This document shows, one piece after another, positions 8,901 through 55,465 of a DNA stretch of 64,000 nt (position 1 is the stretch's first letter; each line of letters begins with the position of its first letter). The stretch lies in the NCBI GenBank assembly GCA_965207445.1, contig CBDBLX010000002.1, positions 512,001-576,000 on the forward strand. The letters are read 5' to 3'. Source of the DNA: Nitrosopumilus sp. (GTDB taxonomy: Archaea; Thermoproteota; Nitrososphaeria; Nitrososphaerales; Nitrosopumilaceae). Below the pieces are notes generated by a model. The model was not told the DNA's origin and did no database searches. It saw only the letters and a list, made by a program, of their open reading frames with translations. Both the position numbers and the translations under genes were made by a program.

Positions 8901-9150
8901 TAGTAGTAGTAGTAGTGGCAGTGATGTCAGGTACATATTGGCACTCAAAGAGCAAGACGGTTGGGTGTATTTTACTACCAATGAATGGCTCAAGGCCTTG
9001 ACACTTGGGGAGAGATATTATCTTTATGTGATACGCGGTGTGATGCAAGAGCCACTCGTACTATCTGATCCTGCTCATGTATTGCGATCTGAACGACGAG
9101 GTACTACATACTGTGTAAGTGTAGACCGTATACTATCGTCATTATCATAA
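5995..9150 (+). CDS. SNF2-family helicase with C-terminal DUF3883 (NO VEIN-like) domain
   Basis: [63 protein letters not shown]; C-terminal GYDIRS...FTTNEW...YYLYVI. Confidence 0.88.
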   Translation: [1051 protein letters not shown]

Positions 9151-9222
9151 GTACAAGCGCTCAGGCCAAGTTGCCATTATGGCTGTGTAAGTGTAGACCG
9201 TATACTATCGCCATTATCATAA
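9111..9222. repeat. 40 bp direct repeat (1 mismatch) flanking a unique 32 bp insert
   Basis: CTGTGTAAGTGTAGACCGTATACTATCGYCATTATCATAA at 9111-9150 and 9183-9222. Confidence 0.95.
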
Positions 9223-9318
9223 TATTTGACATACAGCTACAGTTTGAGATTTTTTGAGACTTTTAGTTGTGTGTAATAATAGTCACCATCACAGTCCACA
9301 TCACAGTCCACATTATGG

Positions 9319-53577: not shown

Positions 53578-53719
53578 TCAACTACATATTAAAAGCAAGA
53601 TTCCTACATGATTGGTTAGTTAGTTGGTTGGTTAGTTAGTTGGTCGGTTAGTGTTTAGAGTAATCTTCACCCAAACACATGTTATAGATATATGTAAGAT
53701 AATATACTAACTATGTGTC

Positions 53720-55465
53720 ATGTATCGCACTATATTCATAATTAGTGTCATTGTACTTGTATCATTTGTTGTTATACATGAAATCCCTGTGTCTTTTGCA
53801 CAGGTGATCGATTATCCTGATCTTGGAGTTAGAGTAGAGACTGTTGCAGATAATCTCAAAGTACCATGGAGCATAGATTGGTTATCAGATGATATCATGA
53901 TAATTACTGAGAGGGGTGGAACCCTTTATGTTCTTAAAAGTGAAAATGATAGATTTCCAATATTGTCACTTGACGTTCAGGGCGGTGAAGGGGGACTACT
54001 TGGTGTTGCAGTGGATCCAGATTTTGAGGTAAATTCGTATATCTACATATATTACACATATGGTGATCTCTTTTCTCTTTACAACAAGGTTGTTCGTTAT
54101 CAATACGATGATTCAGACGATACCATAGTGCTATCAAATGTGCATACGGTAATTGACAAGATACCTGGAAGCTCTTTTCATGATGGGGGGCGCATTCAAT
54201 TTGGCCCTGATGGTATGTTGTATGTTGCAACTGGTGACGCAGGAAACCCCGATCTCTCCCAAGATGTAAACTCGCTTGCAGGAAAAATATTACGAATCAA
54301 CTCTGATGGTTCAATACCTGATGATAATCCTTGGGAAGACTCACCTGTATACTCTATGGGACATCGTAACCCTCAGGGCATGGATTGGACTAGTGATGGT
54401 ATTATGATCATAACTGAGCACGGGCCGTCGGGATGGGTTGGTACGGGACATGATGAGATAAACGTAATTAAACCTGGCAAAAACTATGGTTGGCCATACG
54501 TGATAGGCGACAAAGCGGTTACTGACACTGACATCAATGTGTACCAAGATCCTTTGTTTCATACTGGATATGAGACTTGGGCCCCATCTGGTTCTGAGTT
54601 TTATGAATCAAATGAAATTCCAGAATGGCATAACAAATACTTTGTGGCCAGTTTACGTGGGCAGAGTTTGTGGATGCTAGACATTGTTTCTAATGATACA
54701 CTGTCAGTAAAATCATCTACTGCATTATTTTCAAATGAATTTGGTAGACTACGTGATGTTCAGACTGGCCCTGATGGGTACTTGTATGTGCTGACTAGCA
54801 ATCAAGATGGTCGTGGTGTACCTAAATTGGCAGATGATAAGATATTTCGCATTGTACCATTGTATGATTCTGTCATTTTAGATGATATGATGGCAACAAC
54901 AAATACCAAACAACAAAAACTTACGACATTTTCATATGATGGTAATGAGACTGCTAGTACGGGACCACTTTATGCATCAGTCAGACATCCTGGATATGAT
55001 GTACATGATTTTTCATTTAACATTACACAAAAAAGTATGGCGTTTGAGTTTGCTTTACAATCAAATACTCTAGTGAATGAATCTCTTTCTTCAGATGAGC
55101 GGCTTAAGAAGTATGAAGAAAGTATGTTACAATCAAATACTCTAGTGAATGAATCTCTTTCTTTGTATATCCAAAAACCTCTCTTATCTCCTCCATTTGA
55201 GATAATAATATATGATGATTTTGGAAATTTATCTTATGATAATAATGTGGATGTAAAATATAATCAAGATAATTACATCGTTGTGTTTGATCCAAGAATT
55301 GAAAGTGGACGTATTATGATAATTGGAACTCATGTTATACCTGAATACGAATATGTCATGGTTATAATGTTTATATCTACTATTATACTATTTAGTAGTG
55401 TATTGTTATACCGAAGATTTGGTTTTGGATTATTTTACAATGTTTATGTACAACATATGAAATAA
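53720..55465 (+). CDS. PQQ-dependent glucose/sorbosone dehydrogenase-family protein with PEFG-CTERM-like anchor
   Basis: GEGGLLGVAVDPDF, HDGGRIQFGPDG, GHRNPQG, GRLRDV; C-terminal VIPEY plus TM helix. Confidence 0.88.
   Translation: MYRTIFIISVIVLVSFVVIHEIPVSFAQVIDYPDLGVRVETVADNLKVPWSIDWLSDDIMIITERGGTLYVLKSENDRFPILSLDVQGGEGGLLGVAVDPDFEVNSYIYIYYTYGDLFSLYNKVVRYQYDDSDDTIVLSNVHTVIDKIPGSSFHDGGRIQFGPDGMLYVATGDAGNPDLSQDVNSLAGKILRINSDGSIPDDNPWEDSPVYSMGHRNPQGMDWTSDGIMIITEHGPSGWVGTGHDEINVIKPGKNYGWPYVIGDKAVTDTDINVYQDPLFHTGYETWAPSGSEFYESNEIPEWHNKYFVASLRGQSLWMLDIVSNDTLSVKSSTALFSNEFGRLRDVQTGPDGYLYVLTSNQDGRGVPKLADDKIFRIVPLYDSVILDDMMATTNTKQQKLTTFSYDGNETASTGPLYASVRHPGYDVHDFSFNITQKSMAFEFALQSNTLVNESLSSDERLKKYEESMLQSNTLVNESLSLYIQKPLLSPPFEIIIYDDFGNLSYDNNVDVKYNQDNYIVVFDPRIESGRIMIIGTHVIPEYEYVMVIMFISTIILFSSVLLYRRFGFGLFYNVYVQHMK
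55055..55163. repeat. 37 bp perfect direct repeat flanking a unique 35 bp insert (in frame, +24 aa)
   Basis: TTACAATCAAATACTCTAGTGAATGAATCTCTTTCTT at 55055-55091 and 55127-55163. Confidence 0.97.

Follow-up and report, generated by a model that had tools for sequence, protein, structure and literature searches.

What places a unique insert of some 35 nucleotides (nt) between two copies of ordinary chromosomal DNA, at sites whose sequences are otherwise unrelated? The question is raised by a 64,000-nt stretch of a Nitrosopumilus genome (hereafter the window; positions 512001–576000 of contig C2 in genome G000, which comprises 2.61 Mb in two contigs, C1 and C2), in which a first-pass annotation made from the sequence had claimed four such repeat-insert-repeat units. 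All four are present, each was recovered as a two-copy repeat family, and their repeat copies are 97–100% identical. The organism is a sponge-associated, ammonia-oxidising archaeon that encodes archaeal AmoA, and a close relative (~90% identical) was found in a sponge metagenome. We conclude, with a probability of about 0.88, that these units and others like them across the genome are fossil off-target full-site spacer integrations by the adaptation enzymes of the resident type I-G CRISPR system, a Cas4-Cas1 fusion together with Cas2.

We scanned the whole genome for spaced direct repeats using 12-mer seeds, a repeat length of at least 24 nt and a period (one repeat plus one insert) of 20–400 nt, retaining as isolated those with no second such repeat inside 600 bp. 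Among the 113 isolated repeats, 44 had periods of 71–74 nt (12, 20, 7 and 5, respectively), three had a period of 69 and one a period of 70, against a background of 24 repeats across the 63 other periods of 40–110 nt, or ~0.4 per period. A second, mismatch-tolerant scan (34-nt window, at least 29 matches, CRISPR array masked) gave 14, 30, 11 and 5 matches at periods 71–74 (60 in total) and 0–7 at each other period of 40–110; this count includes some tandem-repeat false positives and adds about ten older units. The flat distribution of lengths that the first-pass annotation had named as speaking against its own proposal is absent, and the sharp peak at 71–74 nt coincides with the repeat-plus-spacer period of the resident CRISPR array. 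Repeats of different units are mutually unrelated and scattered along the entire chromosome; their commonest lengths are 36–37 nt, with 35–40 nt in the 21 units that have clear borders, and subtracting 36 from the period gives inserts of 35–38 nt for the 44 units. We estimate the number of independent events in the genome at about fifty. The density of roughly one per 16 kb claimed from the window falls to about one per 50 kb genome-wide. The two copies differ by 0, 1, 2, 3 and 4 mismatches in 18, 17, 8, 4 and 1 units, respectively, such that the events must be spread over a long time.

The second scan also returned two close pairs of independent units, C2:120255/120377 (122 bp apart) and C2:1970702/1970896 (194 bp apart). 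An insertion-sequence-like family of 13 copies has one member ~500 bp away from the former pair, and two of its other members bear the units C2:1593464 and C2:1708312. Several candidates were dropped from the unit list: C2:494698, 2225150 and 2125137 as probably unrelated (periods of 76–78 and internal repeats), C2:840233 as doubtful (45-nt repeat, 26-nt insert), and C2:55916, which consists of two neighbouring copies of an 81-nt multi-copy palindromic element described below.

In the array whose period the units share (C2:68641–79636), a 36-nt repeat is present 122 times, with periods of 73 (n = 52), 72 (36), 74 (19), 71 (10) and 75 nt (3) and spacers of 35–39 nt, and this repeat was seen nowhere in the genome except in the array. 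An IS66-family transposase gene (C2:75359–76756) splits the array mid-way, and internal spacer blocks have been duplicated, with for example 71433–71685 repeated at 71722–71974. The surrounding Cas locus (C2:61978–81797) is of type I-G, all its components scoring above the NCBIfam cut-offs with concordant Pfam assignments. Its Cas4-Cas1 fusion, a 565-residue open reading frame (ORF), scores 731 bits against the NCBIfam model cas4g_cas1g (cut-off 560) and matches the Geobacter Cas4/Cas1 of known structure from end to end (7mi4, E = 5e-153). The fusion stands beside a Cas2 of 145 residues at the presumed leader end of the array, which we infer from the repeat end, ATTGAAGG on the minus strand; Cas7g (Csb1), Csb2 (Cas5/6) and Cas3g lie on the array side opposite Cas4-Cas1. 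Judged from their sequences, the cognate Cas4-Cas1 and Cas2 genes are apparently intact. Far from lacking cas1, the lineage carries the fusion, Cas2 and the array on the same contig as the window, 430 kb upstream of it.

The integrase had at first been proposed to be of a ruler type, either a CRISPR Cas1-Cas2 or a casposase-like Cas1, and it is the former half of this proposal that stands. Other genomes of the genus do have Cas1 homologues in ORFs of 409–442 residues that, to judge by their length, could be casposases, but a family search of the present genome returned the Cas4-Cas1 fusion beside the array as its single Cas1 homologue. The genus also includes genomes with a shorter Cas1 of 332–338 residues that is not fused. 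Casposons duplicate ~14–15 bp of their target on either side of a complete element that ends in terminal inverted repeats, whereas the units consist of a 36-bp duplication around 35 nt, with inserts of 32–39 nt that hold no gene. The agent is most probably the type I-G CRISPR integrase, not a casposase, and integration by the Cas1 of a casposon or by the integrase of another mobile element is very improbable.

Whether the units are insertions at all was assessed by rebuilding an empty site for each, consisting of flank, one repeat copy and flank, and searching it against the genome. Thirteen units had paralogous copies that align unbroken over the junction, most of them in insertion-sequence-like or other multi-copy DNA, and in the five that were aligned the paralogues are without exactly one repeat plus the insert. 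At one of these, C1:112783 is 99% identical to C2:111042 and is without exactly the 71 bp of the unit; sites 1593464, 1668421, 1708312 and 1099770 have 13, 26, 13 and 3 spanning paralogues, respectively, two or three of which were taken into each alignment. At site 1636813, which lies in a 266-residue frame, orthologues in the relatives G002 and G071 are without exactly 24 residues. Site 1805712 was compared with a paralogue and orthologues, and its insertion falls in a linker region that is poorly alignable. Partial tandem duplication by replication slippage or unequal exchange, in which the 'insert' would be ancestral, does account for C2:55916 as originally listed and for a few matches of the second scan that are tandem repeats. 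It is contradicted at the controlled units, none of which is among the four window sites, by paralogues or orthologues with neither the insert nor the extra repeat copy. It would also produce no preferred period, yet 44 of the 113 isolated repeats fall at four adjacent periods, and it does not provide for the six inserts copied from distant loci that are described next. We accordingly give tandem duplication very little credence.

Six inserts match distant single-copy loci over their whole length, with unrelated flanks. The inserts of units 2066147 and 2374093 match 784148–784182 (35/35) and 1108489–1108524 (35/36), that of unit C2:293216 matches 542544–542576, inside the window at 30544–30576 (32/33, with unrelated flanks), and those of units 1629809 and 1959915 match 1891734–1891772 (33/35) and 1988110–1988148 (about 34/38). 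The sixth is the insert of window site 1, which has a diverged source at C2:406803–406834 (28/32) inside a 211-residue open frame; the observation that the four inserts occur nowhere else holds within the window, and genome-wide it has to be amended for this copy. Insert sources sit in ordinary genes, one in a 986-residue frame that, from reading its translation, we take to resemble an RNA polymerase large subunit, and another in a 443-residue frame that on the same basis presumably resembles a glycosyltransferase.

Self matches were found for 6 of 46 dispersed inserts, in a set that still includes C2:55916 and C2:840233 and was also used for the target tests below, whereas not one of the 120 array spacers had such a match (Fisher p = 0.0004). 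Self-derived inserts fit an untargeted sampling of host DNA. A self spacer would be lethal in a working array, which would account for the lack of array spacers matching the host, whereas host-derived inserts in dispersed units are probably tolerated because their unrelated 'repeats' could not be processed into guide RNAs. Foreign sources were sought by comparing the 7.9 kb of the array locus nearest the leader with a phage collection, and the 24-nt cores of three inserts from the window with viral contigs; neither comparison gave a match.

Copies of this kind could in principle be produced by the assembly, if strain bubbles or k-mer-length overlaps were stitched into the consensus. The assembly is of metagenome type with a second haplotype contig, and short-read contigs from the public runs of the source sample break inside the repeats. 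Such breaks are, however, what real 36-nt repeats give with 31-mers, and several features of the units are at odds with an artefact: the copies have diverged by 0–4 mismatches, insert lengths in genes track the reading frame, independently assembled relatives also bear units, and one older unit is found in both haplotype contigs (C2:27186 and C1:41141). The probability that the class is an assembly artefact is close to negligible.

The second contig, C1 (121,040 bp), is collinear with C2:1–120,000 and with the end of C2, mostly at 98–99% identity, and is likely to be the haplotype of a second strain that was assembled along with C2, in which case the 5.5% 'contamination' of the genome would be accounted for. 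C1 is without the whole 20.8-kb CRISPR-Cas island (C2:61087–81864), the place of which is taken by a single 81-nt palindromic element. The mismatch-free unit C2:111042 is not in C1, while the older unit at C2:27186 is shared by both contigs, as mentioned.

We also compared the units with those of relatives, a sample of few and related genomes for which no statistic is claimed. In 800 kb sampled from the present genome there were 12 isolated units at periods 71–74. Two further type I-G genomes, G078 and G051, have Cas4-Cas1 fusions and arrays of 36-nt repeats, with array periods of 71–75 and 72–74, respectively, and contained 3 units at 71–74 in 760 kb (about 7 at 70–76) and 5 in 400 kb. Searches for cas1 found none in G072, which had no unit at 71–74 in 800 kb, and none in G002, which had one in 400 kb. 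This single unit could be a relic, because the CRISPR-Cas island comes and goes. The array repeats of the three type I-G genomes differ by paired changes in their hairpin stems (GCCGCAAC..GTTGCGG in the present genome, GCCGTAAC..GTTACGG in G078 and GCCATAAC..GTTATGG in G051), which is compensatory covariation.

Following the established mechanism of Cas1-Cas2, the type I-G complex would hold a prespacer of about 35–37 nt, the two 3′ ends of which would attack opposite strands of ordinary DNA ~36 bp apart, and gap repair would then copy those 36 bp onto both sides of the insert. Target choice seems to be largely sequence-independent: enrichment of 5-mers at the targets is weak (best p from 1e-5 to 4e-4 over 512 words), and so is the bias at the borders, with A or C as the first base at 28 of the 42 ends and T or C as the second base at 30. 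Copies of the 81-nt palindromic element harbour two or three of the units, and this may reflect a preference for hairpin-forming DNA of the kind reportedly displayed by Cas1-Cas2 of E. coli.

The junctions were calibrated on paralogues at three units with short repeats, in each of which one copy is shortened at the outer junction, by 4 nt in the case of 2250948 and by 8 nt in that of 1312924. Loss of bases at the outer junction leaves the period unchanged and can thus generate, at these three sites, short repeats at constant period; it may be the scar of repair of a gapped intermediate, as we would hypothesize. At the third unit, C2:1463861–1464070, the right copy gives way to 39 nt of unrelated DNA, the size of a spacer, in place of 6–7 nt of the target, and this stretch may represent a second, abortive integration or repair filler. 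At the other end of the range, repeats of 38–40 nt are about as frequent as chance border identity predicts (we estimate ~18% with at least 38 nt).

Repeat lengths also bear on a different explanation, a CRISPR-independent process that always adds ~72 nt by combining a short genomic copy with a compensating target duplication. The period (71–74 nt) is far tighter than the visible repeat (24–45 nt) or the insert (26–50 nt), and at two sites calibrated by their protospacers the parts do compensate to a sum of 72, with an insert of 32–34 nt and a repeat of 38–40 nt at C2:521111 (window site 1) and an insert of 38–39 nt and a repeat of 33–34 nt at 1959915; the unit in G002, where cas1 was not detectable, would be expected as well. 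Against such a process, the fixed sum equals the array period both of this genome and of two unit-bearing relatives, G072, in which no cas1 was found, had no units in the 800 kb sampled, repeats longer than 37 nt are by our estimate no commoner than chance border identity predicts, and the short repeats at the three calibrated sites result from outer-junction loss with an unaltered period. We know of no candidate enzyme for it, and we consider it unlikely.

Several observations nevertheless weigh against attributing the units to integration by Cas4-Cas1 and Cas2. Targets do not resemble the CRISPR repeat and leader, the 46 sites scoring the same as 5000 random positions (17.7 vs 17.7 of 48, p = 0.64), and a shared protospacer-adjacent motif (PAM), which had been suggested as a check, is not evident, since by eye the six self-protospacers have no common flanking motif. 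Dispersed periods average ~0.8 nt below array periods, and a period-69 minority, made up of window site 2 and a few others, implies inserts of 32–33 nt, shorter than any array spacer. The visible repeats and inserts vary over the wide ranges given above at a period fixed at 71–74; 7 of the 18 mismatch-free units have repeats of 34 nt or less, and base loss as the explanation of short repeats has been calibrated on paralogues at only three sites. The period-72 unit of G002 occurs where no cas1 was found. The link to catalysis by Cas1 is one of geometry and co-occurrence, in relatives that are few and kin, and no window site has its own empty-site control, all four being placed in the class on their geometry, with the diverged self-protospacer as a further ground at site 1.

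Ten units were classed as read-through, standing inside an open frame of 240 or more residues that continues across them, and nine of these ten were 72 nt long, compared with multiples of three in 14 of the 38 other units (p = 0.004); array periods are divisible by three in 39 of 120 cases. The excess of 72 nt among read-through insertions points to selection. These insertions are located in linkers, tails or N-termini, in frames that, with translations read by eye, we take to resemble ribonucleotide reductase, cysteinyl-tRNA synthetase, a cupredoxin protein and an NHL-repeat protein. Survivors overall seem to have been filtered by selection, being found at gene ends, in intergenic DNA, in mobile-element copies and as 72-nt in-frame insertions in linkers and tails. 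The first-pass annotation had suggested that the integrase acts as a mutagen or seeds neo-arrays. In-frame insertions of 24 residues in nine long frames bear out the mutagen; no unit has gained a second spacer, and a search of the genome for repeat-spacer-repeat-spacer-repeat chains found none beyond a coding tandem repeat.

Within the window, the left copy of site 1 (9111–9150, 40 nt visible) holds the stop codon of an SNF2-family helicase gene (5995–9150) and is followed by an insert at 9151–9182 (32 nt, with a range of 32–34 nt; period 72) and a right copy at 9183–9222 that has one mismatch (98% identity to the left). Site 2 is built likewise, with a left copy at 24653–24689 (37 nt) that holds the stop codon of a PIN-domain gene (24123–24677), an insert at 24690–24721 (32 nt, below every array spacer length) and a right copy at 24722–24758 (97% identity, one mismatch). 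With the stop codon of each gene falling inside a unit, the helicase and PIN-domain genes remain intact. The period of 69 at site 2 is slightly outside the main peak of 71–74, and a search for the source of its insert found none. Contigs from the public runs of the source sample end within both repeat copies of this site, and the sequence of the ~90% identical metagenome relative likewise stops there.

Sites 3 and 4 have exactly matching copies. Site 3 comprises a left copy at 31089–31124 (36 nt, 100% identity), an insert at 31125–31159 (35 nt, period 71) and a right copy at 31160–31195, and its insert frameshifts a small uncharacterised ORF, which has 119 residues with the insert and 136 after its removal. 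Site 4 comprises a left copy at 55055–55091 (37 nt, 100% identity), an insert at 55092–55126 (35 nt, period 72) and a right copy at 55127–55163; insert plus one repeat lengthen, by 24 in-frame residues, the C-terminal tail of a protein of the glucose/sorbosone-dehydrogenase family (53720–55465). The conserved domain of this protein is alignable to relatives only up to about residue 385–395, and among the proteins searched the sole homologue of the tail was the tail itself. Orthologous empty sites were sought for the window units in relatives of the same genus, which have ~65–70% nucleotide identity, and the alignments end before the sites, which fall in stretches that are not conserved. With these properties, sites 3 and 4 very probably belong to the genome-wide class of units, site 1 quite probably does, and for site 2, with its period of 69, membership is reasonably likely.

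The units may further be read as evidence that Cas4-Cas1 and Cas2 are a chronic, largely sequence-blind mutagen of their own chromosome. As a joint reading we hold this tentatively, at somewhat less than even odds; it has four components: that dozens of spacer-sized insertions have been fixed per genome, 13% or more of which are copies of essential host genes; that 24-residue in-frame insertions have been written into at least nine proteins; that outer-junction deletions record the repair of a gapped intermediate; and that mutational cost helps to explain the polymorphism of the 20.8-kb island, present in C2 and absent from C1. Off-target integration has been demonstrated in the laboratory and has seldom been documented in nature, and the ~fifty events of graded age in this genome come with internal controls, namely the array period, empty paralogous sites, a CRISPR-less haplotype and relatives with and without the system. 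Off-array target preference, the share of self-derived prespacers that autoimmunity otherwise hides, and the later filter of selection thereby become measurable from sequence alone. CRISPR adaptation emerges as a source of in-frame protein insertions, and an integrase of low target specificity might be worth considering for DNA recording tools.

Other repeats occur in the window alongside the units. The 81-nt element, with ~125–150 genome copies and 15-nt terminal inverted repeats (GTAACCGTTCAACCC ... GGGTTGAACGGTTAC), resembles a miniature inverted-repeat element and is found at 36129–36212, at 57787–57867 and as a split copy at 30761–30955. Nested in a copy of it, 140 nt upstream of site 3, is a second multi-copy element of ~115 nt (about 30780–30900; ~66 copies) with inverted ends ATTAAAGATCCGATA ... 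TATCGGATCTTTAAT. Tandem 9-nt units (CAAAGTCTA / CAAAGTCGA) are interleaved with a 41-nt GC-rich unit at 16489–17960, with periods of 68, 77 and 86, within overlapping open frames of 488–554 residues, and a run of 17 G follows at 18300–18316. A 36-nt unit is repeated eight times in tandem at 20361–20663, with a similar unit at C2:1193519, and a 13-nt unit (CAATGTGGCCATG), the period of which is not divisible by three, occurs 21 times in tandem at 45103–45386. Seven copies of a 94-nt coding repeat, 66–100% identical to the reference copy and with spacings of 144, 192 and 195 nt, lie at 58809–59238 and 62540–63116 in two large neighbouring genes (57919–60072 and 60069–63302) that are rich in Asp/Asn runs.

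In canonical type I-G adaptation, spacers enter at the leader-repeat junction and a PAM is selected for, whereas the dispersed units are found anywhere and no common flanking motif links the six sources that could be traced. The enzyme itself is like that of Geobacter sulfurreducens, being homologous over its full length to the fusion of the type I-G Cas4/Cas1-Cas2 complex (7mi4), in a genome with an array of 36-nt repeats and 35–39-nt spacers. In Streptococcus thermophilus, 'ectopic spacer acquisition' occurs away from the leader-proximal repeat, at internal repeats of the array, according to the portion of that report consulted (PMC7999890), and so differs from the units here, which lie in non-CRISPR DNA. 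Closer in kind are the paired off-target integrations 30 bp apart that Cas1-Cas2 of P. furiosus made in vitro (PMC6698737). These have in common with our units, as reconstructed, a pair of strand transfers into opposite strands of non-CRISPR DNA at repeat-length spacing. The preferred off-target sites of the P. furiosus enzyme were, in the passages of the same paper that we draw on, repeat-like with G or C at the borders, whereas we found no likeness to repeat and leader and only a weak preference for A/C and then T/C at the ends.

The nearest precedent is E. coli, in which over-expressed type I-E Cas1-Cas2 generated off-target 'neo-CRISPR' units (Nivala, Shipman and Church 2018, Nat Microbiol, as cited in 10.1101/148544, PMC7054753, PMC6698737 and PMC11788318). 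The natural evidence in that study, as far as the preprint excerpt goes (10.1101/148544), was circumstantial and came from two species. The E. coli units, as these sources portray them, share with ours a spacer-length insert, a repeat-length duplication of ordinary chromosomal DNA and a resident Cas1-Cas2. Compared with the same accounts, the present events differ in being natural, without over-expression; in involving a type I-G Cas4-Cas1 fusion in an archaeon, with a duplication of 36 bp instead of 28 bp; and in numbering ~fifty fixed events in one genome, with an imprint of selection and no second spacer. A full-text literature search turned up no natural genome described as holding dozens of them; in the papers that it returned, 'ectopic acquisition' denotes integration inside arrays. 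The reaction was already known, and it is its subtype, host and natural scale that seem unreported and would be new here.

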